Assembly: GCA_030390025.1 (NCBI GenBank)
Contig: CM059431.1
Location: forward strand, 123,134,001 to 123,198,000
Length of the DNA stretch: 64,000 nt
Reading direction: 5' to 3'
Origin: Squalus acanthias
Lineage: Eukaryota
Under the pieces are notes generated by a model that was not told where the DNA came from, made no database searches, and saw only the letters and a list, made by a program, of their open reading frames with translations. The translations under genes were made by a program, and so were the position numbers. Shown one piece after another: positions 2,192 to 44,685 of this stretch. Each line of letters starts with the position of its first letter. Positions within the stretch are counted from its first letter, which is position 1.

Positions 2192-2449
2192 TCACAAGGG
2201 TACTCACTTGGGTGTTCTGTTGTGTTTATTTTTGAAAAGCCATCCATGACTTAATGTGATAAAACAACTTGATGGCAAACTGTTGAAGTTGTGGGCTGTG
2301 TCATTTCGCAAATGGGACTTCCACATTGAGGGCTTAGGGCGACTTGCAATTGTCAGTATGGTGGTCAGACTGATAGGAATCTGTAGGTTCTTGGCCATTG
2401 TCGGTGCTCTGGTAAGAAGCTGCGAGGCAAAAGTGTTTGATTGGGCAGG

Positions 2450-3694
2450 CTAAACAAATCTGGCCAAGATGAGTGTGTCCTTTGCATCCCGGGCAGCAAT
2501 GTGCTCGCATGCTGCTGCCACTGGTTGATGCACCTCCGCAAGCTGTTCGTTGTCGCTCTCCTCCTCCTCCTCCTCCTCATCTGAGGAGGCTATGCGATGA
2601 GCCACTTGTACCTCAGGCAGTTGCAAGCAACGATGCTGTGCGATGTTGTGCAGTGCACAGCAGACCTCGATGATTCTGGAGACCCTGGCTGCTGAGTACT
2701 GCAGGGCTCCACCTGATCTATCAAGGCATCTGAATCGTATCTTCAGCAAGCCGATGGTTTGCTCGATTATGGATCTGGTGGAAATGTGGCTGGAGTTGTA
2801 GCGCTCCTCAGCTTCGTTGGATGGCCTCCTCAACGGCATCATTAGCCACGTCTTCAGGGGATAGCCCTTGTCTCCAAGTAGCCATCTGCAAAGTTGGTCT
2901 GGCGGACTGAAGAGCGGAGGCACACTAGACTGGCACAGGATGAAGGAGTCATGGCAACTGCCAGGGTACTTGGCGCAAACATGCAAAATTTCCTTCTTGT
3001 GGTCACACACCAGCTGCACATTGAGGGACTGGAAGTCCTTGCGGTTGACAAAAATACCTGGATTGCGATGGGGTGCCTTAAGGGCCACATGTGTGCAGTC
3101 AACGATGCCCTGCACCCTTGGAAAGCCTGCCAGATTAGCAAATCCAATCGCGCATGCGGTTACACTTGCTTGATCCTTGGAGAAGTTGATGTAATTGTGC
3201 GCGATGGCAAAGAGGGCATCGGTTACCTGTGTGATGCAAGTGTGTGCGGCCGCCTGGGAGATGCCGCTGATGTCTGCTGTTGATCCCTGGAATGAGCCTG
3301 AAGCAAAAAAGTTGAGTGCGGTGGTGACTTTGACGGCCACTGGTAAGGGGTGTCCACCTGCTCCTCTGGGCTCCAGGTCTTGCTGCAGCATTGCACAGAT
3401 GTCACCCACTACCTCTCGCGAAAGTCTGAGCCTCCTTTGGCACTGCTGCTCATTCATGTTGAGGTAGCTCATCCTCTGTCTGTAAACCCTGTTTTGTGGG
3501 TATCTCCTGCGGCGACGTGCTTCCATGCGCTGGCGCCTTCTGGCCTGTGCAGCTTCAGGTGGGTGAGCAGCAGCTTGGCGCTCCTGTTGTTGCTCCTGCT
3601 GTTGGTGCTGCTTTTGTTCAGGGTTTTGCTGCTACCGCGGCTGGTCTTTGTCCGAATCTGATGTCCAGGAGGAAAGGAAATAAATGGTTCCCAT
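2450..3694 (-). CDS. Harbinger DDE transposase (DDE_Tnp_4/HARBI1-like); open 358 aa from Met 3526, probable true start 3694 interrupted by one TAG
   Basis: Motifs [25 protein letters not shown] (D), [18 protein letters not shown] (D), [18 protein letters not shown] (E), CCALHN and an acidic tail. ATG at 3694 is in frame (56 codons upstream) with a single TAG near 3633. Confidence 0.93.
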
Positions 3695-4212
3695 GCTTCT
3701 GGTATATACCTCAGTTGAGGAAGTGTTCAGTCAAGGTGGGGAGAGGGGTTTCCCAGGAGGTCACACTGCAGATGGATCTCAGCCTCAAAACTTCCACAAT
3801 GAGTAGGCCTGCTAAAAGTTCTCCCAGATCTGAGAAAACAAACTTCTGCCACTTGAAAATGATCAGTGTTGAAAAGTCCTTTTTAATGGTGGAGCTGCAG
3901 CTGTTAGTAAGCCATCCACTTGTGAGGCCGCCAGGATTAACTGGCGTGTTCCAGAGGAGACGTGCAGTATGGGGGAAATGTGTTAAAGTTAGAAAGGCCT
4001 CTCAAAATGGTATTATAGAGGCATTTTCGGCCCCTTACAGGGCCTATAATGCCTCTTGGAGGCAGGATCGAAACGGGGTCTGAAAGGCCGCTTTTGGGAA
4101 AATTGATCAGAGGCGGGCTGGAGGCGGGATCTGAGCCGCCCACCATTTTTTGCGATTTTAACATCTCACATGCCTCCAAACCCGCCTCCTCGGGCCTGAC
4201 AAAATCCAGCCC

Positions 4213-9019: not shown

Positions 9020-11080
9020 AAGAAAACGAAAGAAAGACTTGCATTTATGTAGCGCCTTTCATGACCACCGGACCTCCCAAAGTGCTTTACAGCCAATGAA
9101 GTACTTTTGAAGTGAAGTCACTGTTGTAATGTGGGAAACACAGCAGCCAAAATTGCGCACAGCAAGGCCCCACCATCAGCAATGTGATAATGTAGAATTC
9201 GCAAATTATCGCGATTTGAAAATAATGAGAAAGAGACATACAGTTTCGTAAAACGGCTTTATTTCAGCAAAATGCTGTCAGGTTTCAAAACGGACACAAG
9301 CAGCCTGTAAAATGGCCGCCACGCCTCGTGGCAGAAGGTTCTAGACTTTCAGTAGGCAGACAAGATGGCGTTTCAATAAACATTTCAGCAAGATCGGACA
9401 GGACTCAGCATATTGAGATAAGACAAGACGAGATTGTTTTGCATTTTAACACCCAAGCAAGGAATATAAGTGCTGGAATCGGGTTTTCCATGCATAAATG
9501 AGAGCTATTGTACTGGGCAATCAAGGGGCCCATCCAAAGACATTGATACACAAATTCCCCACGGCTCTACGATGAGAGAGCCGTTCGCGGGTACTCACAG
9601 CAAGAATTCGGAGGCCCCCAAAACCCCTCCAGGGAGACTCCTAGCCGGTTCCACAAGGGGAGAAATATTAACGGGTACTCAGACAGTTACAAGTATCACC
9701 GAAACACATTAATGACAAGTACCACCCCATACAAGAAGTTTGAGCGCCAAAACATGACAAAAGATGAACATTAAGATTGGGCGGGAGATAAAGAATTACA
9801 GTACTATAACTGTAGTAAACAAACGTCCATCTTTCTCTTGATTCGACCCCTGGCTCTCGTTTGCGGCCCACCGAGCTCTTGGTCCGCTGATCTTCCGGGA
9901 GTCAACCTCGTGGCTTGCCGCGAAGATCTGTGAAGAGCTGGGCTGCGAAGGCCGGTAAGCGGGTACACCATCCCGAGGGTCGGTAGACGGTGTAGGGACC
10001 CGAAGGCCCGACGAGACGAAACAAGACAAGAAGAAGAAGAAGACGACTGCACGTACCGCCGCGGTCAGTAAACCCCGACCGCGCCCGAACTATAAAGACC
10101 ATTTACAGGTTACCACACGAATTCTACCGCCAACTGGTGTCGGGCACAGGAAGATTCTTCTTTGAGTTTTATCAGAGTTCCGAGGTCAACACAGATCTTC
10201 ATGACAGCAGACGGTCCAGCCTGCTAGCCGGAGCAAAGCGAGTAAACAAGTGGGGTACAGAGACCCCTGATCAACACGTGAATAGTCAGGTGCTGTGGCG
10301 AAAACATCCGAGCAGCGTTTAGGAATTCTCCGAGTTATCACGAGTGGTGAGCATGAGACTCGATCCTACAGATCTAGATTAGGACAGGTATTGATAGGGG
10401 AGGGTTTTTGTTTTAAGGATAATTATAATGTGTGTCCCCTTTTACGATGTGTCATGCGCTCCTCGTTTCCCTAAACCTAGTTTCCTAAATGTATGTAAGC
10501 TTGTACTGTCATTAATCTGTGCTTATGACATGTATTTCATAATCTTGAACAATATGCAATAAAGATTTTCCATTTCGTACTATTCATCCGGGTCTACCTG
10601 AGTTTTCTCTGCATTACTGCTCTCGCACCTAAGTCCAGTGTCAGAACCGTAAGGGCGAGTGGGTCGAACCACTCACAGGTGTCTAGTGCTATCAGGCTGG
10701 CTGGAGACCAGAACAGGCAACAAGGCCTAACCCCGCACTAGCACCCAGGCTAAGCACAGAGCCATGCGAACCCCCTTACAATAATGACCAGATAATCTGT
10801 TTTTGTTATGTTGGCTGAGGGATAAATATTGGCCAGAACACCGGGGATAACTCCCCTGCTCTTCTTCGAAAAAGTGCCATTGGATCTTTTACGTCCATCT
10901 GAGAGAGCAGATGAGGCCTCGGTTTAACATTTCATTCAAAAGACAGCACCTCCGACAGTGCAGCACTCCCTCAAGTGTCAGCCTAGCTTTATGTGCTCAA
11001 GTCCCTGGAGTGGGATTATGAACTCACAACCTTCATGAGCTCAGAGGCAAGTGTGCTACCTACTGAGCCACAGCTGACAC
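9020..11080 (-). mobile_element. tRNA-derived Deu-domain SINE (SacSINE1-like), split by a solo LTR
   Basis: Reverse complement of 17479-17925; head TACTGAGCCACAGCTGACAC ends near 11080, tail GAAAGAAAGACTTGCATTTAT near 9030; halves rejoin across 9191-10780. Confidence 0.9.
9191..10780 (+). mobile_element. Solo LTR, 1590 bp
   Basis: TGTAGAATTCGCA...TGCGAACCCCCTTACA termini; exact 4-bp TSD ATAA (9187-9190, 10781-10784) inside a SINE; TATAAA at 10091 and AATAAA near 10558 give orientation. Confidence 0.9.
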
Positions 11081-22131: not shown

Positions 22132-25100
22132 CTCTGATTTTTTTTTGATTTTCTTCCTTTGGGTATTCTTTTTAACGTTGTCTTGCTATGGTAAACTTCT
22201 TTTATTAATTGTTAGACTCAAATGCTGTCGTACAGCTTAGCTCCTCCCCTCTTCACCCATTTAACATCATGGGGGAAAAATTTGGTTGCTTAGCGCCTCC
22301 CATTAGTGCCCTATAATGGGGCGCAACACAACTAGCGCCCGGGCGCGGCGATGTTTGCGCCGCTCGCGAAATTGACCAGAGTTTTTGCGGCGGCGCTAAA
22401 CTCTACCGCCCTGATCTCCTGCGCCCACAGATCATGATGTCAGTCGAGCGTGCGAAGCCCCGGTGGCGCCCCGGACCGGATATTGAGTGGCGCCCCTTTC
22501 CTTTCCGCCTGCCGCAATCAATAACAGGGAGAGTGGGACGTTTTCCAGTCGGTAAGTGATCCAATCTCAGAGCAGGAATACTGTCATCTTGAGAGAGGAC
22601 AGCACCTCCCTGCTCGACCGACACACTGGCACTCCCACGGGGCAGCACCTCAGCATCTGGAGCAATCTGCTCGAGCACAGATTGCTGGCCTGCTGCGGCG
22701 CCATGAGAGCCCCGGGGCAATGTGTCCGAACCAGCGACGATGGCAGCAGTCACTGCATGCGTGGCCTCAATCTGAGAGAGCAGTCTGAGATTGGATCACT
22801 GCAGCCAGTGACTGAATTGCAGCACAAAGCATTTGTGTGGCATCCGCCTGTGCTGCAGCGTACTCCTTGCTAGTGCATCAATGCTTTTGGGCACCCTTCC
22901 CACTGCACCCATGAGCTCAGTGTGCATGTCCACCGCCTGGGTGTTCATTTCAGCGATGAGCTGCTCCTCCTCTGCGTCCAGTGCAGCAGGACTCGCTGGC
23001 CTACTCTCCCTCTGGGGAGAAGGCCCCCGAGCTTCCCTACCCCCATGGCGTTGCTGCAGCCCGCTGGGTCCTGGAGCTTCACCCTCATCAGACTCTTCCC
23101 CCCTGCTCTCCTCCAGGGAAGACGTGGTCCCAGTGTGGGCATGGGCTTCCTCGGGAGACGCTGGCGCTGAGGCTCCGGCTTCCTCTTCCTCCTCGCCTGT
23201 GGCGTCGCTCCCACTGGCTGGTTGAGGGACAGGCTGGTCAGCTGGTGGTTCTCTATCTGAAAGCAGGGAGGTACAAGAGTGGCTTTAGCGGCAGGACAGG
23301 AGGGCAGTAAGGAAGTAAGGACTGGAGAGATTTAGTAAGTTGGATTGAAAGTGTCAAAGGCTGGTGTTGTGAGGGACAAGTGGAATGAGAGAGGAGAGAA
23401 AGCGGATGAACTTACCATTGCTGTCCCAAATGGGGTCGGCCTCTCCAGGGGCGATGGGGCCGATCACCTGGCTTGCCACAATCCTGGGGACGCGTGCCTC
23501 AAGATCGCTGAGGGGTTGCAGCTGAGGCAGTCCTCCACCCATCCATTGCTGCTGTCTCCTGTTGTGAGATAGCTTGACCTGCAAGAAAAAGGATGGCGTC
23601 TGAGTAAATATGCAGCCACGGTCTTGCCTGATTTGCCTCCCATAGTTGAATAGCCCTTAATGTATGCAAGGTGTGGAATGTGCGTGTGTGTTTTATGAGA
23701 TGGCCATAGGTCTTGGGCATTGGGGTTTTAAGACCATCTGGCCTTAGAGTGAGGTTGAGATGGAGGGATGGAGAGGTATTGAAAAAAAGCCACTCACCCT
23801 GACGATCGAGTGAGGTTGTTGAACTTTTTTCGACATTGTACATGGGCCCTGGGCACCATGCTCCTGGAGGAGATGTGCTGAGCCACCTCCCTCCACACTC
23901 TTCTGTAGTCGCGCAGCAAAGGCCTCCTGCCACTCTCAGGGTACAGTATAGCTCTTCGGCGCTCCACCGCGCCAACCAGAGCCTCCAAGGCCCGCTCGCT
24001 GAAGCGCTGAGCTCGCTCAGGTGATGTCAGTTAGCAATGGAACACAGACATACTGGCGCCGGCCAGTTCTTAAAGGGGAGGGTCGATCTTGCTCTCCAGC
24101 CACACCCTGCTCATTGCAGGCTTGAATCTCGTCGTGGAGAGACCTGTGCCTGAAATCTTCAGCCAAGGACTATGGAGAGGGTCAGAGAGTGATCTCAGCG
24201 CTTCAGCGATCGGGCCTTGGAGGCTCTGGTTGGTGCGGTGGAGCACCGAAGAGCTATACTGTACCCTGAGAGTGGCAGGAGGCCATTGCCACGCGACTAC
24301 AGAAGAGTGTGGAGGGAGGTGGCTCAGCACGTCTCCTCCAGGAGCATGGTGCTCAGGACCCATAAGCAATGTCGCAAAAAGTTCGACGACCTCACTTGGG
24401 TCGTCAGGGTGAGTGGCTGTTTTTCAATACCTCTCCATCCCTCCATCTCAACCTCACACTATGGCCAGATGGTCTTAAAACCCCAATGCCCAAGACTTAT
24501 GGCCATCTCATAAAACACACACGCACGTTCCACACCTTGCATACATTAAGGGCTATTCAACTATGGAAGACACATCAGGCAAGACCATGGCTGCATATTT
24601 ACTCAGACGCCGTCCTTTTTCTTGCAGGCCAAGCTATCTCACAACAGGAGACAGCAGCAACGGACGGGTGGAGGACTGCCTCAGCTGCAACCCCTCAGCG
24701 ATCTTGAGGCGCGCGTTCCCAGGATTGTGGAAAGCCAGGTGATCGGCCCCGTCGCCCCTGGAGAAGCCGACCCCATTTGGGACAGCAATGGTAAGTTCAT
24801 CAGCTTTCTCTCCTCTCTCATTCTACTTGTCCCTCACAACACCAGCCTTTGACACTTTCAATCCAACTTACTAAATCTCTCCAGTCCTTGCTTCCTTACT
24901 GCCCCCCTGTCCTGCCGCTAAAGCCACTCTTGTACCTCCCTGCTTTCAGATAGTGAACCACCAGCTGACCAGCCTGTCCCTCAACCAGCCAGTGGGAGCG
25001 ACGCCACAGGCGAGGAGGAAGAGGAAGCCGGAGCCTCAGCGCCAGCGTCTCCCGAGGAAGCCCATGCCCACACTGGGACCACGTCTTCCCTGGAGGGGAG

Positions 25101-26076
25101 CAGGGGGGAAGGGTCTGATGAGGGTGAAGCTCCAGGACCCAGCGGGCTGCAGCCACGCGATGGGGGTAGGGAAGCTCGGGGGCCTTCTCCCCAGAGGGAG
25201 AGTAGGCCAGCGAGTCCAGCTGCACTGGACGCAGAGGAGGAGCAGCTCATCGCTGAAATGAACACCCAGGCGGTGGACATGCACACTGAGCTCATGGGTG
25301 CAGTGGGAAGGGTGCCCGAAAGCATTGATGCACTGGCAAGGAGTACGCTGCAGCACAGGCGGATGCCACACAAATGCTTAGTGCTGCAATTCAGTCACTG
25401 GCTGCAGTGATCCAATCTCAGACTGCTCTCTCAGATTGAGGCCACGCATGCAGTGACTGCTGCCATCGTCGCTGGTTCGGACACATTGCCCCGGGGCTCT
25501 CATGGCGCCGCAGCAGGCCAGCAATCTGTGCTCGAGCAGATTGCTCCAGATGCTGAGGTGCTGCCCCGTGGGTGTGCCAGTGTGTCGGTCGAGCAGGGAG
25601 ATGCTGTCCTCTTTCAAGATGACAGTATTCTGCTCTGAGATTGGATCACTTACCGACTGGAAAACATCCCACTCTCCCTGTCATTGTTTGCGGCAGGCGG
25701 AATGGAAGGGGGTGCCACTCAATATCCGGTCCGGGGCGCCACCGGCGCTTCGCACGCTCGACTGACGTCATGATCTGCGGGCGCAGGAGATCAGGGCGGT
25801 AGAGTTTAGTGCCGCCGCAAAAACTGGTCAATTTCGTGAGCGGCGCAAACATCGCCGCGCCCGGGCAGCTAGTTGCGTTGCGCCCCATTATAGGGCGCTA
25901 ATGGGAGGCGCTAAGCAACCGAATTTTTCCCCCCATGATGTTAAATGGGGGAAGAGGAGAGGAGCTAAGGTGTACGACAGCATTTGAGTCTAACAATTAA
26001 TAAAAAATGTTTACCATAGCAAGACAACGTTAAAAAGAATACCCAGAGGAAGAAAATTAAAAAAAAAAAATCAGAG
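22132..26076. repeat. ~3.9 kb quasi-palindrome: arms 22132-24018 and 24187-26076, spacer 24019-24186
   Basis: Arms are reverse complements along their length (mirror ORFs 22833-23225+ / 24981-25373- and 23354-23584- / 24622-24852+) and include ~140 bp of non-transposon flank. Confidence 0.95.
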
Positions 26077-26264
26077 TTAGCTCCTCGCTCCTTGGCCTTT
26101 GCACCTTAAGACAGGTGTGTAGCGCCTGGTTTAGTGCTCCAATCACCTCCAGGGGCGATAAAAGCCAAGTTTGCAGTCGGAGGCGATAATTAGCGCCAGG
26201 CGCTAAACTTTGCGCACGGCCGATAATTGCGCCCCAAATGGGGCGATACCAGAATTTCTCCCCC
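22271..26264. mobile_element. Non-autonomous Myb-only Harbinger (copy C) containing the inverted duplication
   Basis: Termini GGGGGAAAAATTTGG (22271) and CCAGAATTTCTCCCCC (~26264), flanked by CAT/CAT; 26077-26264 matches the end of copy G (51800-51988); no transposase sequence. Confidence 0.88.
24172..25640 (+). pseudogene. Harbinger Myb/SANT gene, exons 24172-24408, 24628-24790, 24950-~25640 (mirror copy on - strand at ~22560-24018)
   Basis: LEALVGAVEHRRAILYPESGRRPLPRDYRRVWREVAQHVSSRSMVLRTHKQCRKKFDDL; junctions AGG|GTGAGT, TTGCAG|GCC, ATG|GTAAGT, TTTCAG|A; early TGA and exon 3 lesions. Confidence 0.85.
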
Positions 26265-26689
26265 CATATATTTCAATTGCTGTACCTTTAAAAGTAATTT
26301 TTGCCTATGCCTGTCCTTTTAGTAAAAAAAGTATGTTTGTTTAGCTGATCGTTGAATATACTGCAGTTTGTGAAACTTTACAGCGTGTAGTTCTTTCATG
26401 ATGAAGCATTTCACCATTTTGCTACCAATCTCACTGTAGTTTCACTCTGATATGGATCGCTCCCAATGTAGTCTATCAGGCCACCTTAGACTGATCAATT
26501 TTGGTCTATCTTCAAGCATACCAGCTCACTGGATGTGTTACATTTTATGCTTGCTAAAACCCTTTCCCATCACTTAATCTGCCTCAAGTGTAGAAGATAG
26601 TCGGAGTAACAACAAAGCAGTTTATTCAAACCTACGGAAGTATGATACTTTCTTAAATACTTCTATCCGTTGGTATATTATTTGCTAGT

Positions 26690-27050
26690 GCGTAGCTCAA
26701 TGATACACACCACGAATGTCCTAAGTTTGATCGCTGGTCTGTGCTGAGCTAACTCATCAGTAGGAGCATTATTAGCAGTGTCAGTGCTTTAGGGTTGGGA
26801 AGGGAAAAACTGTCCAGTTCACTCGGCAATAACACCTGTATTTGTGGATGTTGGAATGAGGATGGGATTAGGTGAGAACAGGCATGGATTTGGTTGCAAT
26901 GTCCCCATGATTGAATAGCTCATTGCGCAGGCTCCAAAATAACATCTGACTACTTAGCCAAGGCTCGAGAGGGCACCAGCTGCCTTTGGAACAGTACCCC
27001 AGCATCACAAGAAGGAGCCCATGCATTCAGGAGGGAAGGGGCAGAGGGGA
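26690..27050 (+). mobile_element. Old tRNA-derived SINE-like repeat (related fragment on - strand at ~41225-41400)
   Basis: TAGCTCAATG..AGTTTGATCGCTGGTCTGTGCTGAGCTAACT head resembles degenerate Pol III boxes; family recognised from memory only. Confidence 0.4.
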
Positions 27051-29802
27051 GAACACCAGCACACAGAAAGGAGAAAAAACACAGTTGGCTGCATGAATAG
27101 GAAGAGTGAAAGAGAAAAGAATTGTCGGACGTGTCTTCCTAAGATTGGGAGTACTCATTCCCTTTTCCCAGATGACCTGGTGCCAATGTAAATTGGATCC
27201 CATTGATTTCCACCTGAAACTAGTGAAGAATGTGAAGCTTCTCTCCTTGCCTTTAATTTGCCTGTCATGGTGTTAACGAGCTTAATAGAAGTCTCCTCGA
27301 CCACAGTTGAGATAACAGCCTCATCAGATATAGTAATTAATATACTTTTACCAGACTTAATTTAAACATCTCCCAAAATCTGACATTTCGAAATATTACA
27401 TTTTGTATTGTATTAAAATTCACATTTCATCCAAGACTTTAGTATTTCAGTAGAATGAAGACCTTTTCTGTTGCAGTAGATATTCACATTCTCAGCAGGC
27501 GCACAGAAGGCTACATAGATATTATTAATCGAACCCAAGAAGACATCAATGGCGCAGAATGCATCTGGTAATCAGTTAAAAAAATGTTGATACAGTTTCT
27601 TGACTGTCTGAGTGAGTTAAGAAAATTATTTGAAGATTGCCTTAGTTGCCACAGCAGGGGCTCTTGAAAGGTGTAGATGTTTCGAAGGTGAGTGCACTGA
27701 TCACTGTCACTCACAGTGGTGAGGTGTAACTCATGTGAGCCTCATACTCAAGGGACATTTTACAAAATTGTACTCCTGGTGCAGAACCTAGGCTGCCAGG
27801 AGCAAATAACAAAAAAATGGGCATGTGCTTGATTTCACAATAAGCACTGCCAGGCAGGCCAAGAGCCACACTAGGAGTGTGATATATAATAAAATTACCC
27901 CTATGGATTTTCTTTATGCTTATCTAAAATGCTCAATAGTATTTGCTATCTAATCTAAATTTCCAAGAACATCGGTATCGCCCATTTTGGGGCGCTAACA
28001 TCGGCAGGGCGCAACCTTTAGCGCCCGGCGAGAATTATAGCCAGACACCGCGATACTCGCCTCCAACGCCCCTGGAGGTGATTGCAGCGCTAAATCAAGC
28101 GCCACACACTCTCTTAGGGCGCTAACGTTGGGGAGCAGGGCGCTACCTCAGAGCGCTACTCAAGGCCAGGCGCTGTGAATCGCACCTAATCAAACATATT
28201 GGCGCCTTCCAGTTCTTAAAGGGGAGGTTCAAGCATCCTGCACAGCTGCACCCTTCTCATTGCTGCTTGTGACCTGGTCCTGGAGGAAGCCTCAAACATT
28301 GCACTGAGACAGTGATGGCATTGCAGAGGCCCAGGGAGAGAGCCCACTGCTTCAGTGAGCAGGCACTGGAGGTTCTGGTCATGGCAGTCGAACGGCGATG
28401 GGCACTGCCCTTCCCACACACTGGCAGGAGGCCATTGCCCCAGGAATTTTCAAGGCTGCGGAGGGAGGTGGCCCAGTATGTCTCCTCCAGAAGTGTGGTG
28501 GGAAGGACGCACACCCAGGTGTCGGAAGAGAAGTTCAACGACCTCACTCAGGTGGTCAAGGCGACTACATGCTTCAAAAACCTCTTCATTCCACCATCCC
28601 ACCAGCCCAACCCCACTGTGTGCACAGACTGTATACACTGCCACATCCCCAAAGCACATCTACCAACTATGCCCACCTACTAAATGTCACATCCACATCT
28701 CACACCACGCAGACATTAACTGCTATTCAACTATGGTAGGCACATCTTCCAAACACATGGCTGCAGAATCACTCACACACTGTCCTTTTTCTTGCAGGCC
28801 AAGCTGGCCCACAACAGGAGGGAGCAGCAGCGCACGGGAGGCGGGCAGATGGAGCTGTGGCCGCTCACACAGCTTGAGGAACGAGTGCGGCGTATCATTG
28901 CGAGCCATGTCGTGGGTGCTGTGGCGATTGGAGAGATCGACCCCCTTGGGGACAGCAACGGTATATTCATCACCTCTCCCTCTTCCCTCATACCATTTTC
29001 CCCTCACAACACAAGCCCTTCCCACTTTCCATCTAACTATACTGTCTCCTTTCCTTGCTCCCTCCTGCCCCCCTCCCCTCATGTTAAACCCACTCTTGTG
29101 CCTTCCTACTTTCAGACAGTGAGCCAGCATCTGACCAACCTGTCCCACAGCCTGCCAGTGTCAGCGAGGCCAGAGACGAGGAGGAAGACCAACCCAGAGC
29201 CTCAGTGCCTGCATCTCCCAAGCCCAAGCCATCAGACACCAGGGGAGCATGGGAATGGCCTCTGATGTGTTGGAAGCTCCGGTACCCAGTGGCCTGCAAC
29301 AACACCTTGGGGAAAGGGAAGCTCGGGGGAGATCTCCTCGGAGGGTGAGTACACGCACGAGTTCTGCTGCACAGGACTCGGATGAGGATCTCGACATCGC
29401 AGCCATGAATATGCAGGCGATGAGCATGCACACTGAGCTCATGGGTGCAATGGCAAGGGTGCCCGAGAGTATGGATGCACTGGCTAGGAGCGTGGAGGAA
29501 TCCCACGCCAGCACAGCTGTCATCTGTGCACAAACCCTTGAATCCATCCTTGCCTCATTGCCGAGGATGGTGGAATTGCTGGAGGACCGTGGGCACCCAG
29601 ACACTATGCCGCGTGCAATGGGTGAGATGGCACAGGCCGAGGCAACGCAACAGTTTAGTGCTGGAATCGAGACCTTGGCTGGTGCCATCCAATCTCAGAC
29701 TGCTCTGATGCAGTCTCAGATTGATGCCATGCAAGCGCTGACTGCTGCCATCATAGCTGGGTCAACCACTGTCCACCAGGGATCTGACGGTGCCACAACA
29801 GG

Positions 29803-31240
29803 TGTAAGATTCTAAACACGTAATAAAACCACTGCTACCGTGTGGAGATCGAAATTGCGAACGAATTGTGAGGAAGTCAGCATGTGTTCCTTTGTCTGTG
29901 AGGATTCAAAATGGAAGAAGTCAGCAGGCGGTCCTTTGTCTGTGAGGATTCAAAATGGAAGAAGTCAGCAGGCGGTCCTTTGTCTGTAAGAATTTACTAC
30001 GGAGGTCGTCAGCATGTGTTCCTTTGTTTGTGAGACCACATGGACAGGAAGGAGAAACACCGGATGAAGAGGAAATCCTGCCCCCCACACACATCATAGG
30101 AACATGAATGTGGCAGGCAGAAGGAACGCCAATCAGGGAAGGTTGGGAGTGAAACTGACTTATCAGAGGGAGGCAGATGAAGATATACGAGTGGGCCCAT
30201 GCCGGAGGGCGCTATAAAGGAATGACCCAGAAGTAGGAAAGTCAGAAAGGACAAAGGGGGCTATTTAAAATGGCAGTCGACGTTTGCAGCCTTTTCCAGA
30301 ATGATCACTCATGGAGGAGTGTATGTATGTATGCATGTATGTAAGTTGGACATAGAGATTATATATATATATATGAATTGTTGGGAAGTACTTTTATGTA
30401 CGGTTGACTTGGGATATGAATCGCCAGGGGTTAACATAGAAACATAGAATCTAGGAGCAGGAGTAGGCCATTCGGCCCGTCGAGCCTGCTCCGCCATTCA
30501 ATACGATCATGGCTGATCATCCAAATCCAGTACCCTGTCCCTGCTTTAATCCCCACAGTACACATATCCCACCCTACCCCCGTAACCCCACGTATTTAAT
30601 TCCCCCTAACATATCCCATCCTATCCCCATAACCCCACATATTTAATCCCCCCTAACACTAAGGGTCAATTTATCATAGCCAAATCAACCTAACCCACAC
30701 ATTTTTGGACTGTGGGAGGAAACCGGAGCACCCGGAGGAAACCCACGCAGACACGGGGAGAATGTGCAAACTCCACACAGACAGTCACCCGAGGTCAGAT
30801 TCGAACCCGGGTCTCTGGCGCTGTGAGGCACCAGTGCTAACCACTATGCCACCGTGGTTAGCATATGAATTTCTGGAAAGAACTTTTATGTACAAAACTG
30901 TGGGCATATGGATTGCCAAGGATTAGCATAGAAATTGCAGGAATACTTTTATGTACGTTTAGCTAAACTGTGTAGCATATAAATTGCTGGGGCAGTCATT
31001 TTATGTACGAAATTGTGAGCATATTTATTGCCAGGGCGAATTAATAAACTGTGGGCATATTTATTGCCAGAGTGAATTAATAAACTGTGGACACATACAT
31101 TGCCGCGAGTGCTTCTATGTACACTTGAATTTTAAACTGTAGTGTAATAAAGATAATTTTATTTATAACAAACTTATCTGTCATTGTTACGCTTATTTGT
31201 AATTCTCGAAGTCCAAGCTGTAGTTGGAGAAAGTCCTACA
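29803..31240 (+). mobile_element. Solo LTR (~1.0 kb excluding the nested SINE)
   Basis: TGTAAGATTC...GTCCTACA termini; 4-bp TSD CAGG/CAGC restores the Myb exon; TATAAA near 30213, AATAAA near 31146; internal tandem repeats. Confidence 0.85.
30434..30856 (-). mobile_element. HE1-like V-SINE, young, with CR1-derived tail
   Basis: tRNA-like head (GGTGGCATAGTGGTTAG, GGTTCGAATCT on - strand), V-domain (GGAAACCGGAGCACCCGGAGGAAACCCACGCAGACACGGGGAGAA on + strand), (TTTCTATG)n tail, TSD GTTA. Confidence 0.92.
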
Positions 31241-31944
31241 CAGCCCAGCAATCTGTGCTCCAGCAGATTGCTCCGGATGCTGTGGTTCTGCCCCATGGGA
31301 GTACCAGTGTGTTGGTCGAGCAAGAAGGTGCTGTCCTCTCTCAGGATGACAACATTCCTGCTCCCACCACTGCCACTCCGCCATTGCACTTGCCACAGCC
31401 TGTAACCCAGCCAGCCCAGACTGCTGCCGCCCATGCTGAGATGGTACAGTCTGCAGCCGGGCCCTCCAGGGCCAGAGCTGGTCGAGGGCGTCCTGCAAAG
31501 CCATCTGCAGTCTCTGTCTCGCAGATTCAGCAGCCTTCCATCAGCCTTGCTGCAGCCACTGGGGCCACATTACAGAGTAGCAGTAGGGTTGGTAGGTGTG
31601 AAGTGCGGAGGGGATGGAGATCACCGAGGAAGGCCCAATAACTGAAGTGTTTGCACTAAATGGGGGGAGTGTTTCCCAGACATTTGATTGTGTTTGTAAA
31701 TATGTTGTTCAATCTGTTACATCGTTCTCGCGAGTGCTAAGCACCAGTTCTGTTTGTAAATAAATTGGATTGTTTGTCTGTTACCAGTTGTGGTTAATAA
31801 GATACAGTTGTTCACATTAATAAGAGTGTTTGTCTCCATGTTACAAATCTGATCATCTTCGTCATTGCAACCTTGGCTGCTCATAAGGGCTCAGGCATGG
31901 CTGCGATGATGTAGCTGTGGAACCCCAGTGCCATGTGATGCCTC

Positions 31945-33130
31945 ACTCTTGAGAAGCGCTGTCTGATCAGGCGTTAACGGACGGCCCTTGCAGAGACAAC
32001 ATTGCGCAGCCCCCTCCCACGTTATTGCAGCTCCCCCCCCACACTTCCTCCTCCTCCTCCACCTCCTCATCCTCCTCCTTGCCCTCTTCCTCCTCCTGAG
32101 GAGGTCCAGCTATCCCTGGTGGCAATGGCTGGGTCCAAAGAATGGCGAGGTTGTGCAGCATGCTGCAGACAACTATGAACAGTGACACTCGATCAGGGGA
32201 GTACTGCAGGGCTCCTCCAGAGTGGTCAAGACACCGGAACCGTTGCTTCAGCAGGCCGATGGCCTGCTCGATGAGGCTCCTGGTGGCGTTATGGCTTTCA
32301 TTGTAGGCGAGCTCACCAGGAGTGTTGGGGTTCCGGAGCAGTGTCATCAGCCAGGTAAAGAGTAGATATCCCTTGTCGCTGAGGAGCCAGCCCCAAGCTT
32401 GATGCTGGGGTTCAAACAGTGCTGAGACACCAGTCTGGCGCAGGATGAAGGCATCGTGGCTGCTGCCAGGATAGCGGGCATTCACGGCGAGGAAACGCTG
32501 TCGATGATCGCACACCAACTGCACATTCAGGGAGTGGTAGCCCTTCCGGTTGCGGAACAACTCTGCATGTTCATGAGGTTCCCACAGTGCCACGTGGGTG
32601 CAGTCAATGGCGACATGAACCATGGGGAAGCCCGCTAACCTAGCAAAGCCACATGCGCATTCGTGCTGTTTCTTTCATCTCATGGGGAATGCGATGTACT
32701 CCCTTCTCCATCTGTACAGAGCATCAGTTACCTCCCGGATGCAGCAATGGACTGCAAACTGGGAGATGTTCACAATATCCCCTGTCAATGCCTGGAAGGA
32801 GCCGCTGGCATAGAAATTGAGGGCCACTGTCACTTTCACTGCCACCGACAGAGACGTCCTGGTCCTGAGCCGAGGCTCGAGCTCTGGCCGCAAGAGGTGG
32901 CAGAGCTCTGTGACTACCTCCTTGCTGAATCGCAGCCTTCTGATACACTCCTCCTCTGAGAGATGGATATATGAGAATTGTTCTCTGAATATCCTGGGAG
33001 GGTAAGTTCTTGTGTGGAGAGGTCTGTTGGTCCTCCTCCCTCTGCCCACGTTTTGCACTCTCTCTCTCCGCCTCCGCTGCCTCCGATGATGAGCTGGAGG
33101 TCGAGCCCCCCATGCCATTACAGCCCCCAT
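31945..33130 (-). pseudogene. Harbinger DDE transposase of copy D, with internal stop (~32675) and 3' frameshift
   Basis: YPPRIFRE..CIRRLRFSKEVVTELC..ALNFYASGSFQ; AIDCTHV, PGSSHDAFI, LLSDKGY, RSLIEQAIGLLKQRFRCL, CSMLHN. Confidence 0.92.
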
Positions 33131-33887
33131 TAAATCTTCAAAGTGTTGCTGCAGCAAAGGTAACAGAAATGGGAAGCTAATAAGTTTCTCTGCCGACCAA
33201 CAGTCCCTCAAGTGTGGAAGTGTGAAGTCCCCCCAAACGCGTCTCTCCCTCTCTGAGCGTGCATAGGCACAATAGTTTGCCGACGGGAGAACACAGGAAG
33301 TGCGCGCCTTTAAATAGCGTTCCCCTAGCTCCCAGCTTACAGTGCACCGTCCCCCTGTAGATGTTGTTTCTGTTGCCAGGCGCTGGAGCAGGGGGTGCGA
33401 CCCAATTTTGCATCCGGGGCACTGCGCGCATGCATGACATCACGATCTCCGGGCGCAGGAGATCGTGGCGCTACTGTTTAGCATCGCCCCTAACCAGCAG
33501 CTGAATATCGCGAGCGGCACTACAATCACTGTGCAGGGGGCGGTATGTGGTTAGCGCCCCACTAGCGCCCCCTGGAGGCGCTAAGAGGCAGCACTAAGCA
33601 ACCGAATTTCCCCTTCTGGGTATCAAAACAAAAGGAATTAACACCATATCCATAAATCCTGTGGATTGCCTCTTTTCTCAATTCTATAATAATAATGCTT
33701 CCATTTGCACACCACCTTATCATGTTGAAATGTCTCAGCACTTCCCACATCACAGCTATCATTGGGAATCCTAGGCACTAACCTGTATCCTACTACAGCA
33801 TCTGCAATATGTTGGAGCTCAATGTGCAAAACACCATGGAAACCCCAGACACCATTGCTGCATTGAATACAGACCAATGCAAATTCA

Positions 33888-36306
33888 AGGGTTAAAAATT
33901 CGATGGTTTAGCGCCGGCCGTTATCCCCCGATTCACAAAAAAAATGGCAGCCGCTGCACTTCTGTCCACTGCTGGTGGGTCCTGTGGCGGCCGCCGCCAT
34001 TTTCGACTGGGCAGCAGCGTTGCTGAGGCCTGCACTTATGAAACTGAAGGAGATTATGTAGAGCGTGACGTCAGTGAGTGTACAACGCTCACTTGATGCC
34101 CGATCTGCCATTTTCAACTCTGCTGCTCCACTTACCAGCATGCCTTAAGTACGACAAACTGAGCAAGCATTGACAAGCAGGAAGGAGGCTCCAGCAATGT
34201 TATTTAAAGGGATCATCAGCAACAACTTGCAGGTGACATGTTTCTGCAGTTTGACTGGCTCTGTGGAACTTTCTGCAACTCCAGAAGTTTTCTAAACTTC
34301 TTTCAAGGTTCTAAGGTAACAGAGAGTGTTGATGTAAGTGGAGAGCGCCTATATTATTATTTAAAGGCTTCTGCTCACAACACTTGCTCACAGTCATGGG
34401 GGCTCTACTGGCAGTCTCCCTCATGCTCGAGTATCTTTGGGAGAGGGAGCAGAGGCAGCGGAGAAGAGGAGAAGATGCGCGCAGAGGGAGGAGGAGGAGG
34501 GCTCGCAACAGGAGGCCATACCCACCTAGGATTTTCTGAGAACACTTCCCTTATATCCACTTAAGCGAGGAGCAGTGTATTAGGAGGCTCCGCTTCATCA
34601 AGGAGGTGGTCACAGAACTCTGCCACCTCCTGCAACCAGATCTGCAGCCTGAGAGCAGGGTGACCACAGCTCTCCCAGCAGTTCTCAAGGTCACTGTGGC
34701 CCTCAATTTCTTATATGGTGAGGGGCTGGCAAGGGGAAAGCAAGATATGCATGCATGCATTCGGCATCAGCAGCTTGTAAGTGAGAAGAGATTGTGAGAT
34801 GAGGGGGGAAGTGGGATGTGAGAAGAAGGATTAGGAATGAGCGTGCCGTTGTTGTCCCCAAGGGCTTCAACCTCGCCCGTTGCCATGGCCTCCATGACTT
34901 CCTGTCCAATGATGTCGAGCACTCGCTCCTCCAGTTGGCTGAGGTCCTAAACATAGAAACATAGAAACATAGAATCTAGGAGCAGGAGTAGGCCATTCGG
35001 CCCGTCGAGCCTGCTCCGCCATTCAATACGATCATGGCTGATCATCCAAATCCAGTACCCTGTCCCTGCTTTAATCCCCACAGTACACATATCCCACCCT
35101 ACCCCCGTAACCCCACGTATTTAATTCCCCCTAACATATCCCATCCTATCCCCATAACCCCACATATTTAATCCCCCCTAACACTAAGGGTCAATTTATC
35201 ATAGCCAAATCAACCTAACCCACACATTTTTGGACTGTGGGAGGAAACCGGAGCACCCGGAGGAAACCCACGCAGACACGGGGAGAATGTGCAAACTCCA
35301 CACAGACAGTCACCCGAGGTCAGATTCGAACCCGGGTCTCTGGCGCTGTGAGGCACCAGTGCTAACCACTATGCCACCGTGTTGCTCCTGGAAGGCAGCT
35401 TCCCCCCCACCCCACCCCCGCCTGTCTGCCGCTGCTCCTGGCGATTATGCACAACCTTGGTCTGCAAGAGAAAAGGACGTGTGTGAGTGAGTGTGGTGCA
35501 ACGTGTTTGGGTGATGTGCCTGCTATAGTTGAGCAGCTGTCAGTGTGTGCAAGGTGTGAGATATGGGTGTGAGTGTTACAGCAATGGTAAGGTTGTGGGA
35601 GTGAAGTGAAGTGAAGCTATGATTGTAAGGTCTGAGTGGTGATCGCTAGAGATTGTTGGTAGGTGAGTGCTGGGGGTCTGGTGCATTGGGCAGTGTGTGA
35701 GGCTTGTGGTGCAGAAGGTGGGATATGGCATTTGCTGAAGCCTTCATTCACCTTGACCTGAGATGGAAGGCCATTAAACTTCTTGCGGCACTGGATGGAC
35801 GACCTGGGGACCACACTGGCAGCCGTCACATAATCAGTATCTCCCACCATAGACTTCTGGATGTATGGGTCAATGGCTTCCTGCCAGCTTGCAGGAAGAG
35901 GACAGCCCACCTCCTCTCCATGGCCACCACCAGTTCCTCCAGAGCCGTGTCTAAGAAACTTCTTGCTCTCTCTCCCTGTGCTGAGGCTCAGCCATCTCTT
36001 TGTAGTTGGTTGTGCTTCCAAGTGGAATGACAATGAGGTGTTGTTGCATCAATGCACCTCCCCTTTAATACCGGATAAAGCCTAGGCGCATCATGACTGG
36101 GAATTAGACTGCTCCCGCTATTGGCCCACCTGTTAAGCGGTAAGCCAATGAGCAGCGGTTTTAGCGCTGAGATCAGCATTTTAATCATGCTAATGAGGAC
36201 TGAGCACATACTTTGCATGCTACTTCGACCAGTTTGACCCGGTGCAGCTTAATATTGTTGGGCCATGACACCACCTTTTTACGCGCCATATCCAATTTCT
36301 AGGCTC
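33888..36306. mobile_element. Internally deleted Harbinger (copy E): transposase 5' part (+, ~34396-34712) and Myb exons 1-2 (-, ~34840-35995)
   Basis: RRPYPPRIF..HLSEEQCIRRLRFIKEVVTELCHLLQPDL..LKVTVALNF; VVPRSSIQCRKKFN; ends GGGTTAAAAATTCG / CCAATTTCTAGGCTC. Confidence 0.8.
34951..35381 (-). mobile_element. HE1-like V-SINE, apparently identical to 30434-30856
   Basis: No difference seen by eye apart from one extra tail unit. Confidence 0.92.
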
Positions 36307-38619: not shown

Positions 38620-41190
38620 ATATAGGATTTCTGTATGTTTGGGTTATAGGATTTCTATATGTTTGGGCTGTAGGTTTTCTATATATTTGGGCTGTAGGAT
38701 TGCTATATGTTTGGGTTATGGGATTTCTATATGTTTGGGTTATAGGATTTCTATGTGTTTGGGTTGTAGGATTTCTATATGTTTGCGTTATAGGATTTAT
38801 ATATGTTTGGGTTATAGGATTTCTATGTGTTTGGGTTGTAGGATTTCTATATGTTTGGGTTATAGGATTTCTATGTGTTTGGGCTGTAGGATTTCTATAT
38901 GTTTGGGTTATAGGATTTCTATATGTTTGAGTTATAGGATTTCTATATGTTTGGGTTATAGGATTTCTATGTGTTTGGGTTATAGGATTTCTATGTGTTT
39001 GGGCTGTAGGATTTCTATATATTTGGGTTATAGGATTTCTATATGTTTGGGTTATAGGATTTCTATGGCCCAGAAATTGATCTCGCTCTGTTCCCGCGGG
39101 GGTAAGGCTTTCCCGCGATCTCTCACGTCGCTTGTGCTTTTTCAGATCCAGCTCGCACGAACTTCATGTTCTAGAGATCAGCTGGGCAGTGCTTGCGTAT
39201 CCCAGCGGCGTAGTGAATTTGTGCGAGCTGTGGGATCACGTGACTCAGTTAGAGCCAATGGCAGCACACCATCTTCCATTCATAAGTTTCACAGCACGGC
39301 TGTGAAATCTATGAATCTTACACCCCCCCAAAATAACAGCTAAACCTCAATTAAATTAAAAAAAAACCCCATCACATTAATAAAATCAGTATAGTTAATT
39401 AAATTAACCATTTTAAATAAAAAATTAAATTTTTGAAAAAATTTAAAATCTTTTAAAAAGTTATAAAAATAAACTTACCTGTCTTTAAAGTCTCTAAAAA
39501 AGATATACCTGTTAAAAAAAATTCAAAAAAATACTTAATTCACTACTTACCTTCTTAAAAGCGGGTCTTACTCCTCCTTTTTACATTTCCAAAATCTTCC
39601 GTACTTACTTGCGCGTCCAAAGCATGAAGTGCACAGCGTGCGCGCAGCCTGTAGCGCGCACGCGATGCACCGAGGACCCGCCCCCTTTTCAGAAGAGCAT
39701 TTGCCGGTTTTCAGCGCATGCGCAGGGCATGCAGAAAACCGGCAATTGGAGTGGGAATACGCGAGAGTACGCAGTGCGTACTCTCGCGTCCCGGGGTCAA
39801 TTTTCGGCCCAATGTGTTTGGGCTGTAGGATTTCTATATATTTGGGTTATAGGATTTCTATGTGTTTGGGCTATAGGATTTCTATATGTTTGGGTTATAG
39901 GATTTCTATGTGTTTGGGCTGTAGGATTTCTATATATTTGAGTTGTAGGTTTTCTATATGTTTGGGTTATAGGATTTCTATATGTTTGGGCTCTAGGATT
40001 TCTATGTGTTTGGGTTATAGGATTTCTATATGTTTGGGTTATAGGATTTCTATGTGTTTGGGTTATAGGATTTCTATATGTTTGGGTTATAGGATTTCTA
40101 TGTGTTTGGGTTATAGGATTTCTATATGTTTGGGTTATAGGATTTCTATATATTTGGGTTATAGGATTTCTATATGTTTGGGTTAAAGGATTTCTATGTG
40201 TTTGGGCTGTAGGATTTCTATATATTTGGTTTATAGGATTTATATGTGTTTGGGCTATAGGATTTCTATATGTTTGGGTTATAGGATTTCTATGTGTTTG
40301 GGTTATAGGATTTCTATATATTTGGGCTGTAGGATTTCTATATATTTGGGCTGTAGGATTTCTATATGTTTGGGTTATAGGATTTCTATATGTTTGGGTT
40401 ATAGGATTTCTATGTGTTTGGGTTATAGGATTTCTATATATTTGGGCTGTAGGATTTCTATGTGTTTGGGCTATAGGATTTCTATATGTTTGGGTTATAG
40501 GATTTCTATATGTTTGGGTTATAGGATTTCTATGTGTTTGGGTTATAGGATTTCTATATATTTGGGCTGTAGGATTTCTATATATTTGGGCTGTAGGATT
40601 TCTATATATTTGGGTTATAGGATTTCTATGTGTTTGGGCTGTAGGATTTCTATATATTTGGGTTATAGGATTTCTATGTGTTTGGGCTGTAGGATTTCTA
40701 TATGTTTGGGTTATAGGATTTCTATGTGTTTGGGCTGTAGGATTTCTATATATTTGGGTTATAGGATTTCTATGTGTTTGGGCTGTAGGATTTCTATATG
40801 TTTGCGTTATAGGATTTCTATATGTTTGGGTTATAGGATTTCTATGTGTTTGGGTTATAGGATTTCTATATGTTTGGGTTGTAGGATTTCTATATGTTTG
40901 GGTTATAGGATTTCTATATGTTTGGGTTGTAGGACTTCTATATGTTTGGGTTATAGGATTTCTATGTGTTTGGGATGTAGGATTTCTATATGTTTGGGCT
41001 ATAGGATTTCTATATGTTTGGGTTATAGGATTTCTATGTGTTTGGGTTATAGGATTTCTATATGTTTGGGTTGTAGGATTTCTATATGATTGGGTTATAG
41101 GATTTCTATGTGTTTGGGTTGTAGGATTTCTATATGTTTGGGTTGTAGGATTTCTATGTGTTTGGGCTGTAGGATTTCTATATATTTGGG
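38620..41190. repeat. 24-bp minisatellite, consensus GGGTTATAGGATTTCTATATGTTT, roughly 75 units, split by a MITE
   Basis: Direct reading; translates as (GYRISICL)n; variants TTA/CTG/TTG/CTA and ATG/GTG/ATA at two positions. Confidence 0.97.
39067..39810. mobile_element. Harbinger-type MITE (744 bp) inserted in the minisatellite
   Basis: GGCCCAGAAATTGA ... TCAATTTTCGGCCC; flanks TAT/AAT in satellite register; CpG-rich ends and AT-rich core. Confidence 0.85.
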
Positions 41191-42571: not shown

Positions 42572-44685
42572 GGGTGAGAAATTCATGGCCTTAGCACCAC
42601 TCCTTAGCGCAATTAAATGGCACTAATATGGCGACCGCCACTCTTTCGGCAGCTGCTGGCGAGTCCTGCGGTGGCCGCCATTTTGGTCCCTACCTTTGCA
42701 CTGCCAGTAACTGGCAGCGCCATCTCCAACAAAATGGCGGTGTCACAAGCGCGAACTTTGATCCTAGCACAGAATTCAGTGCTCGGTCCTAAGCATGCAC
42801 CTCTTAAAGGGTCACACACATCGTTCAGGTAAGTTTGGATTTAAGGTTTTGGACAGTTTTTTTTTACTTTATTGAAGTGGTGGCTTGCTGCAATAGATGT
42901 GAAAAGTTTTTTAAGTGTCTAGGGAGTGCTTCTGGATGCTTGCAAGGCCTTGGATGGCAAATGAAGGCCTTTGAGAAGATCGAACATGTGGCAAATACTC
43001 AGTAGGTCACGCAACATCCATGGAGAGAAAAACAGAGTTCATATCTCAGGTTGAGATGCTGCCCGACCAGCTGAGTCTTTCCAGTATTTTATGCTGTCAT
43101 TTCACATTTACAGCATCAGCTTGAAGAAGGAGAAGAAGAAGCAGAAGAGGAGGAAGCAGAAGAGGAAGAATCAGAGAGAAGGATGCATCCCAGGCAGTCC
43201 CTTTGTGACCAGGATATCAGGGATGGAATCATCCGCCTGTGGTCCCAGTGACCACAGCCCCAATTCCCCTTTCAACATTAGTCCCACACCTTACCTTGCA
43301 TCTGTTACTGACCATCACAATGTCCTCTTGGCCATGATGCTGAAATAAAAGCCACCACAAAGCAAATTTTCCAATCCACCTATATACGTTTAGCCATACA
43401 ATGTGACATCAAGAAATCAACTCATCACCCGTATGCATTCTCTTAGTGATTGTCTTGTGTGTGCCTTTGCCTATCCTACTGATGTCACGCAGTGCTACCC
43501 CAGTGGCTGCAGCATCGCTGGTGGAAGGCTGCGGACCTTCAGTGGGGGACATTGCAATTGGCCTTGCTGGTCGACCTTGAGGAGCTGGTGGCTGGGAGTG
43601 TTAAATCAATCTTCTTCTTCTTCACTCTCCTCTTCCTCTTTTTGGTCACCCACTGGCTGGGCAGGCTGCATTTCTTAGGTGTGTGAAATGAGGAAGGCTA
43701 AAGGGTGGAGCTGTGGTGATGGCAGGGCAGGAAAGCATGAGGTGGCTGCCAGAAGGAGAATAACGTATGAAGATACCAGCATCTTGTATCCTTTCAGCCC
43801 TGCCACTGATCAATGCCTCAGCCATGCTCATGCCAAGAATGGCCTGCAATGTCTCCTCCAAGGAGATGAGGTGAGGCTAGGAATGGGAGATTAGTGATTG
43901 GTGCAGATTGTTGGGAGGTGAATGATTGGGGGTGGGGGTCATGCATTGAACAGTGTGTGAGGCTAGTGGTGCAGTTGGTAGGAGTCGACTTTTGAAGATG
44001 CATTCACTTGACCAGTGGTCTGAGGTCATGAAGCTCCTTTGGGCCCTGGAGCCAGATGGTGGGGGCGACACTGTTGGCAGTGACAACCTTGGTGATGTAC
44101 TCCCACATCGTTCTTTCTGGAGGGTCTCCTGGCCTTGTGGGTAGAGGGCCAGTCTTGCAGTGTTGACCCCCTGCACCAAGCTGGAGTGCTGCGTGCGAGA
44201 CCCTGAGTGCCCCTTCCCTGGCTTGCTGAGCCATTTGTGCTAGTGCTGAGGCAGTTTTCCTATTTGTTCAGGTTAGGAAGGTAATTCAGCTTTAAGAGCT
44301 AAATATTTATGCTTGGGACTTTTTAATGTTAAATAATTTCTTGAAAGACAGAAAGGACTGAAAACTGCATTGTTTCACTTTATTTTAATTTGCATTGCTT
44401 CAGTGTGCATGGCCCCTTTAATTCTCAGGCCTCTTTATTATCCATAGTTCCCTGTGAGCTCCACAGCCTTGCCTCCAGAGGCTGTGCGATGCTCAAACGC
44501 CGCACCTGCACACAAACTATGGGTTGGATTCCTCCAGCAACGTCACCAGGATGCCGTTGCACAGCAGCTAAGCGCTGCGCCAACAATCTCCATCCCCCAG
44601 ATGAATTTTGCTCCGTTAGCGTTGCGGCCATTTTCAGCGGCCGTTAACACAGTTAACTTTACTGGCTAACACGAATTTCTCCCCC
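42572..44685. mobile_element. Decayed non-autonomous Harbinger (copy F) with Myb remnants on - strand (~43490-44234) and a Penelope-derived bit at ~42990-43095
   Basis: TIRs GGGTGAGAAATTC / GAATTTCTCCCCC; MAQQAREGALRVSHAAL..TMWEYITKVV..WLQGPKELHDL. Confidence 0.8.

Follow-up and report, generated by a model that had tools for sequence, protein, structure and literature searches.

An inverted duplication in a Harbinger element: the probable trace of an ordinary DNA-copying accident, with a family-silencing role unsupported

The fold-back at positions 22132-26076 of the window (the whole stretch of DNA that was analysed, 64 kb in length) looks like the result of an ordinary DNA-copying accident rather than a demonstrated silencer of its transposon family. 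It is a real and old palindrome, probably fixed, and it lies within a dead Harbinger copy of a non-autonomous and very abundant family. We hold the template-switch origin of the palindrome with high confidence, and the explanation as a whole, an accident followed by neutral decay, is likely. Loci of this kind are already known; the new observation is a homogenised tract of 667 bp within the arms.

The first-pass annotation had described two inverted arms of about 1.9 kb around a 168-bp spacer, with a duplication that covers most of a Myb gene, one terminal inverted repeat (TIR) and about 140 bp of host flank, and this description holds. Arm L (22132-24018, segment A) consists of host flank, the left end of the element and the body of a minus-strand Myb gene without its first five codons, while arm R (24187-26076, segment A inverted) contains the plus-strand Myb gene, with a stop at codon 7 (24190-24192), the inverted left TIR to 25933/25934 and the inverted flank at 25935-26076. 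The two arms are inverted relative to each other and are 95.6% identical over 1893 columns in blastn; in a global alignment of 1884 positions there are 9 gap columns and 74 substitutions between them, of which 51 are transitions (24 at CpG), giving a K2P distance of 4.05%. The duplicated host flank (22132-22270, plus strand) is 139 bp of single-copy DNA, as judged from contig depth and from a contig running outward, and it ends in the left target-site copy CAT at 22268-22270. The spacer (segment B inverted, 24019-24186, plus strand) is, as had been claimed, the inverted promoter/ATG segment: over its 168 bp it is the reverse complement of that segment of copy G, with 156 of 167 aligned letters matching. 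It carries the Myb core promoter region, with the motif TTAAAG at 24070-24075, labelled TATA-like by eye (an identical motif lies upstream of the Myb gene near 28217), and an ATG at 24172, both pointing into arm R only.

Copy G (50123-51988, minus strand) belongs to the family of the arms, is unrearranged across the promoter and has a frameshifted Myb exon 1; no left TIR was found in it, and it is used here as both reference and outgroup. Relative to copy G the order of segments at the locus is A, then reverse-complemented B and reverse-complemented A, then D. In blastn the spacer and arm R together correspond to a single native stretch of copy G reversed, from G 51781 down to 50123, and 26071-26279 aligns with G 51796-52002 as the continuation. 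At the first junction (24018/24019), compared with G 51780-51781, arm L continues on the opposite strand, at the distal end of the promoter segment, with 1-bp microhomology (the C at 24018). At the second junction (26074-26077) the inverted flank passes to the right end of the element, with GAG common to both at 26074-26076 and five of six letters alike at 26071-26076. The element's other end resumes at 26077, in agreement with the earlier claim: from there the native right end matches copy G at 159 of 173 letters, and this segment D (26077-26267, plus strand) includes the TIR to 26264 and the right CAT target-site copy at 26265-26267. The earlier estimate of about 18 bp lost relative to copy G, with GAG at the return junction, becomes a loss of 17 bp (G 51782-51798). 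The inverted copied piece is thus the 2,058 bp of 24019-26076, and of the breakpoints one falls 139 bp beyond the TIRs and the others 1.75 kb and about 190 bp within them.

The double template switch that had been proposed fits these junctions, which show the order 3-1-2-4, microhomology of 1 and 3 bp, and no breakpoint at a transposon end. The start state would be a non-autonomous Harbinger of 2.1 kb, its transposase already deleted and its Myb gene truncated. In a single replication or break-repair accident, synthesis would halt at 24018 and switch strand about 170 bp ahead, copying 2,058 bp backwards, from the promoter across the Myb gene and the left TIR into 139 bp of host DNA, until the right end was rejoined through the GAG microhomology with 17 bp lost. 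Note that the identical product would result if a simple fold-back had formed first and its spacer had been inverted afterwards, a course of events indistinguishable from the double switch. Afterwards the 168-bp spacer may have allowed the palindrome to survive. A 52-bp spacer abolished frequent fork stalling in eukaryotic cells, and repeats of 6 kb with a 280-bp spacer were stable in wild-type yeast, according to the available text of PMC7999016; since spacers of 52-280 bp stabilise eukaryotic inverted repeats, selection is not required for the survival of the palindrome. The locus would then have decayed as methylated DNA, probably with one arm-to-arm conversion of about 670 bp and with no selected function. 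Of this account the geometry, the junctions and the decay pattern are observed, while the polymerase switch, the conversion and the neutrality are inferred.

The assignment of the element to the non-autonomous PIF/Harbinger type follows its features: a Myb/SANT gene, short TIRs with a 3-bp target duplication, and DDE_Tnp_4 in a neighbour that is 70% identical. The TIRs begin at 22271 and end at 26264, are alike at 11 of 12 letters and have CAT on each outer side; the insertion flanks, ACAT-[CAT]-ATAT, conform to A-N-N-Y/R-N-N-T, and the native length is about 2.1 kb. Myb_DNA-bind_5 (PF13873) scores above the cut-off in both arms (E=1.1e-08 at 23809-24018 on the minus strand and E=6.2e-08 at 24193-24408), and deletions of 8 and 10 bp relative to copy G are common to both arms. 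The left TIR (GGGGGAAAAATT) and its CpG-rich subterminal region (22271-22554, plus strand, CpG o/e 1.12) are homologous to the transposase-upstream end of the element at 27970-33613, the alignment ending about 30 bp before the TATA-like motif (labelled by eye) of that transposase-side end. The left end is joined to the Myb 3' region by an inverted filler at 22555-22571, 17 bp that are the reverse complement of 22784-22800 and that mark an older internal deletion. Because both arms carry this filler, the loss of the transposase predates the fold-back.

The neighbour at 27970-33613 is a decayed two-gene Harbinger, with Myb on the plus strand and a DDE transposase on the minus strand split over two frames (DDE_Tnp_4 with E=4.6e-33 at 31970-32674). 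It had been named, together with 49740-51988, as a member of the same family. The second of these stands as copy G, with its match to the arms beginning at 50123; the first does not, being about 70% identical to the arms and a different Harbinger family. In terms of 21-mers common with the arms, there are 447 of 2229 in copy G, 9 of 5624 in the element at 27970-33613 and 0 of 4180 in the Harbinger at 1-4200, which has an open transposase frame. No transposase match from the arms to 31967-33140 was found by blastn, no autonomous member of the arms' own family was found in a weak search for Myb exon 1 homologues among longer proteins (374 candidates, 0 at E<=0.001), and the 64-kb window gave 0 Rfam matches.

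The earlier view that the palindrome has persisted is supported by its 74 arm substitutions, which are biased to CpG. Between the arms, transitions affect 24 of 196 CpG positions and 27 of 1688 others. In the left-end region (22271-22554) 9 of 66 CpG positions differ between the arms by transition, compared with 2 of 216 others (p=5e-5; about 15-fold), and from this excess it is concluded that the inward-facing ends have been methylated in the germ line. The private changes are balanced between the arms (L 23, R 24, over 1406 columns), and the transitions do not favour G-U pairs whichever strand is considered (31:20, p=0.16), so that they give no sign of selection on pairing. These signatures in the sequence make it likely that the fold-back has been neutral.

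The homogenised tract lies at 22634-23300, with its partner at about 24906-25572 in arm R. Only 9 differences occur in its 666 bp, compared with 38 in the 678 bp of 23301-23978 (1.4% vs 5.6%, p=2e-5); a scan test gives P of 0.055, 0.007, 0/5000 and 0.0004 for windows of 300, 500, 667 and 800 bp, respectively, the tract borders and the 667-bp window having been picked after inspection of the data. Gene conversion, which had been suggested as something to be judged from arm-arm divergence against that to the consensus, is probable here: the arms are alike in the tract, and their distance to copy G is unchanged (8.4 and 7.7% in the tract vs 8.7 and 9.1% in the adjoining sequence; p=0.92 and 0.38). 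This is the pattern of arm-to-arm conversion given in the available text of PMC1803023, namely arms closer than their age predicts with the distance to the outgroup unchanged. Shared CpG decay, taken as a further test of conversion, is seen at 3 sites in the tract vs 1 outside, where the direction fits and the counts are too few. Coding constraint on the tract, which covers Myb exon 3, was rejected, as the open exon-3 frame has 7 nonsynonymous vs 2 synonymous arm differences. Duplex selection or polishing could alternatively underlie the tract, since the arm-to-G distances, taken from a single outgroup, are too coarse to show the 2-point difference that is predicted.

Because the tract is homogenised, the event is older than the arm divergence of about 4% suggests. 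Its age can be compared with differences in the unique flank, which number 60 of 1315 (4.6%) for organism B, 6 of 1630 for run X1 and 8 of 1553 for run X2. The non-CpG arm divergence outside the homogenised tract, 40 of 1079 (3.7%), is indistinguishable from the distance between organisms A and B (p=0.31), and the fold-back would therefore date from about the time of the A-B split and greatly predate present polymorphism. A contig of organism B (run X6) aligns from 26252 onward, within the right TIR, and its own first letter comes 15 letters before that, where the contigs of X1 and X2 also begin (26236 and 26237). Organism B thus probably has the element insertion at this site; X6 has no cover at 26006-26008, so that this concerns the insertion and not the fold-back itself.

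Among the alternatives to a neutral accident, the one that survives best is that of a passive duplex: the locus would be part of a non-coding transcript or of a long intron of a host gene, and would fold co-transcriptionally and undergo A-to-I editing or degradation, leaving the family unaffected. Any read-through RNA would indeed fold, and the window holds only repeats and mobile-element open reading frames, which is compatible with a large intron. However, no host exon was recognised by eye in the stretches inspected, where small ones could be missed, and a host transcript is thus not indicated. We consider this alternative unlikely.

The first-pass annotation had proposed a silencing role like that of maize Mu killer, which our analysis leaves unsupported rather than refuted and which we regard as quite improbable. 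In the form considered here, a transcript that starts in a host gene, or at a left end facing inward, would cross both arms and form a 1.9-kb duplex, and the resulting siRNA or piRNA would silence the Myb helper in trans. Several features are in line with it. The predicted RNA folds, with -1084 kcal/mol for the 1206-nt centre and 29 perfect runs of at least 21 bp (1357 bp in total); the transposase-side end is the source of both outer ends, as it is of the two TIRA of Mu killer (PMC3440606, available text); the 21-mers shared with copy G and the homogenised tract are both present. In addition, the Myb protein is needed for Harbinger transposition, as stated in the part of PMC9179366 that bears on it, and is still a possible target, and a transcribed inverted pair of two LTRs gives 21-23-nt RNAs in mouse ovary, as described in the accessible part of PMC6944382.

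The weight of the evidence is nevertheless on the other side. The arms hold a broken Myb gene and no transposase sequence. The anatomy of the locus revealed no promoter in a position to drive transcription across the two arms: by alignment and by eye, the Myb TATA-like motif and ATG in the spacer fire into arm R alone, which would give a sense RNA without a hairpin, and the corresponding motif of the promoter on the transposase side appears to be deleted. The ends have decayed as DNA methylated in the germ line, as described above, and the pairing shows no G-U bias. As for targets, the Harbingers of the window that bear a transposase share almost none or none of the 21-mers of the arms, one of the two that had been named being a different family, and copy G, the sole copy of the same family in the window, is a dead fragment. 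In a family this abundant inverted neighbours are commonplace, and arm R and copy G are already one such case, an inverted pair 25 kb apart and 92% alike over 807 bp; one extra inverted pair would probably add little. Moreover, efficient RNAi in mouse oocytes depends on a truncated Dicer of rodent origin (PMC6944382, accessible part), the helicase of Dicer is believed to have lacked activity in the ancestors of vertebrates (PMC10328071, available text), and the Mu killer paper itself, in its available text, rejects a read-through hairpin and favours short antisense RNAs from an internal promoter (PMC3440606). A full vertebrate counterpart of Mu killer, in which two CpG-rich transposase-side ends would read across the 1.9-kb Myb duplex, germline small RNAs would shut down a family of thousands and the exon-3 tract would be kept paired, has a correspondingly slim chance. 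If it were true that the fold-back seeds small-RNA silencing, the maize killer mechanism would extend to vertebrates, here to a non-mammalian one.

It is also very improbable that the structure was made by the transposase, through alternative or aborted transposition as in the maize Ac killers. The whole event lies within 140 bp of a single element, and the older deletion in the same element has its 17-bp templated filler. Templated filler is the kind of scar that is left by gap repair. However, alternative transposition acts on element termini (10.1101/2020.01.07.897926, in the portion available), whereas here neither junction is at a TIR, no breakpoint falls at a transposon terminus, and the outer TIRs with their CAT target copies are in place.

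The sequencing runs bear on the reality of the locus and on the abundance of the family, through contigs from four of 20 runs (8 studies) that were aligned to 23955-27950 only. The contig depth at 26008, in the duplicated flank, is 14.5 and 9.64 in X1 and X2, where the unique right flank has 20.1 and 8.42, and from this similar scale it follows that the duplicated flank is single-copy host DNA. A contig of X1 covering 25908-26000 (depth 15.9) has the arm-R letters at four of four substitution sites that differ between the arms, plus one gap, while another covering 25971-26069 (depth 14.5), with 154 further letters lying elsewhere, has four letters that are not those of arm R where the arms differ at four sites, the two that are named being of the arm-L type. 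The two overlap by 30 bases, which we read as a graph branch at the diagnostic site 25970; the X2 contig starts at 25959, adjoining the diagnostic site 25958. The pattern points to a single-copy flank that is present in two versions, in two samples of two studies, with heterozygosity at one copy less likely; one of the two runs may be the source of the assembly. Contigs of X1 and X2 also cross the right end of the element into the unique flank; these right-end contigs each have one unplaced gap, and the length of the C-run lacks independent confirmation. Over the element bins the summed contig depth is about 1e5-1e6 in X1, X2 and X6, where the unique flank has 20.1, 8.42 and about 7.4; this sum is no copy number and is usable only as a sign of a very abundant family, probably of thousands of copies. 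Run X17, which is RNA only by guess, covers the element and its introns with contigs about 92-96% alike to arm R (8 pieces listed), and lacks cover of the unique flank and of 26006-26008, where the uncovered part proves nothing. A joint in X6 between 23962 and 24249 on opposite strands was rejected as junction evidence, these positions being equivalent in the two arms. That the fold-back is an assembly artefact from chimeric fold-back reads is barely credible: no contig crosses either junction among the 32 matches listed (with 65,210 further), and the homogenised tract could partly come from polishing, but the 74 substitutions with their 8-fold CpG excess are a biological signature not expected of read chimeras, and the single-copy contigs of X1 carry separate arm-R and non-arm-R letters at the diagnostic sites of the flank.

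We thus return to a template-switch accident followed by neutral decay. The value of the locus is limited to being a clean, datable palindrome of kilobase scale that survived, decayed and underwent what is probably one conversion. Its 74 arm-private letters and two unique junctions allow reads to be told apart from those of the thousands of other copies, which makes it usable as a test locus.

Compared with known systems, the locus is, as killer loci are, an inverted duplication of part of a DNA transposon. With Mu killer (PMC3440606, in its available text) it shares an internally deleted DNA transposon, an inverted duplication of about 4 kb and two transposase-side TIRs. By contrast, the arms of Mu killer carry the transposase gene mudrA and those here a Myb gene, and Mu killer lies between two host genes, is transcribed and has been shown genetically to silence the active element; the present locus also includes a third TIR and host flank, and its arms have diverged by 4-5%. 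The Ac killers p1-ww-id1 and id4 are likewise inverted duplications, in which one end of a DNA transposon is repeated over about 2 kb, but as described in the accessible text of 10.1101/2020.01.07.897926 they arise by alternative transposition, retain the promoter, are located within annotated genes, in introns, and give rise to dsRNA and siRNA, whereas the breakpoints here are away from the termini. In contrast to both, our locus is known from sequence alone. No killer-type locus for an animal DNA transposon was found among the titles and abstract openings listed in the literature searches, subscription papers being mostly outside their reach.

The element itself resembles the zebrafish Harbinger3_DR group, as presented in the available text of PMC9179366 and PMC3016246, in its Myb/SANT gene, short TIRs and 3-bp target duplication, and in the convergent DDE transposase of a full-length relative, here the next-door element. 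It differs in that the present copy has no transposase and is mostly mirror-duplicated, and in that the target triplet is CAT here and CWG for Harbinger3_DR (PMC3016246). The homogenised tract is like the inverted-repeat gene conversion described in the available text of PMC1803023 in its excess arm similarity with a steady outgroup distance, differing from it in that here there is one 670-bp tract only and no intact genes are kept.

Finally, we note the comparison with the four-point model of Loytynoja and Goldman (PMC5453318), where type 3-1-2-4 gives an inverted repeat with an inverted spacer. In how its switch points are ordered, in the product and in having little or no homology at the switches, the locus is like this type, and relative to copy G it shows the inverted repeat, the inverted spacer and the small loss between points 2 and 4. 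The paper, in its available text, treats short events within one fork and states that long-range ones are not modelled, which the 2,058-bp copied piece exceeds; a piece of this length falls within the scale of FoSTeS/MMBIR.

In the fold-back element, the non-autonomous Harbinger that carries the inverted duplication, the internal deletion, with loss of the transposase, is marked by a 17-bp inverted templated filler at 22555-22571. It is noted that the fold-back also created a unit, 22271-25933, having a left-type TIR at both ends, and it is possible that this unit is a seed for a palindromic element. Its flanks consist of the duplicated host DNA, so the unit as a whole has not transposed here.

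Other copies and ends bearing on the Myb gene are present in the window. In copy G, a minus-strand copy of the same family (50123-51988), intron 1 of the Myb gene contains a 54-bp tandem duplication (51178-51292). The sequencing run X6, from organism B, has a 54-base step back at 24594-24541, a place equivalent to that of this duplication, implying that the duplication variant is present in other copies. The TIR sequence GAATTTCTCCCCC recurs at 44620-44690, in a further end that closes a decayed Myb-bearing element. Note also that a Harbinger of an unrelated family, at 184-3631, has a DDE transposase, with an open 393-aa frame on the minus strand (2450-3631), and a convergent Myb gene, with PF13873 at 184-423 and a 400-aa open frame at 989-2191. 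Of the two-gene elements in the window, this one is possibly the youngest.

A SINE-like insert of 424 bp occurs twice (30433-30856 and 34958-35381), each time within a separate decayed Harbinger; the two copies are 100% identical, which suggests very recent activity or conversion. A SINE-like repeat is interrupted by a 1.5-kb insert (9200-10780), possibly a solo LTR, where TATA-like and polyadenylation-like motifs are seen by eye. An array of 24-bp tandem units (38621-41190; 18.6 and 57.3 copies) is broken by an insert (about 39067-39814) which is rich in CpG and resembles a non-autonomous DNA transposon.

Minus-strand frames at 62500-63700 are broken and by eye envelope-like, with no match in a Pfam search of these frames. 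RNase H and integrase zinc-binding domains are present in a decayed minus-strand LTR retroelement (57600-61430), and short repeats near 57620 and 61370 resemble each other. The LINE at 46111-48891, whose open frame of 926 aa encodes an endonuclease domain and a reverse-transcriptase domain, we take to be a CR1.
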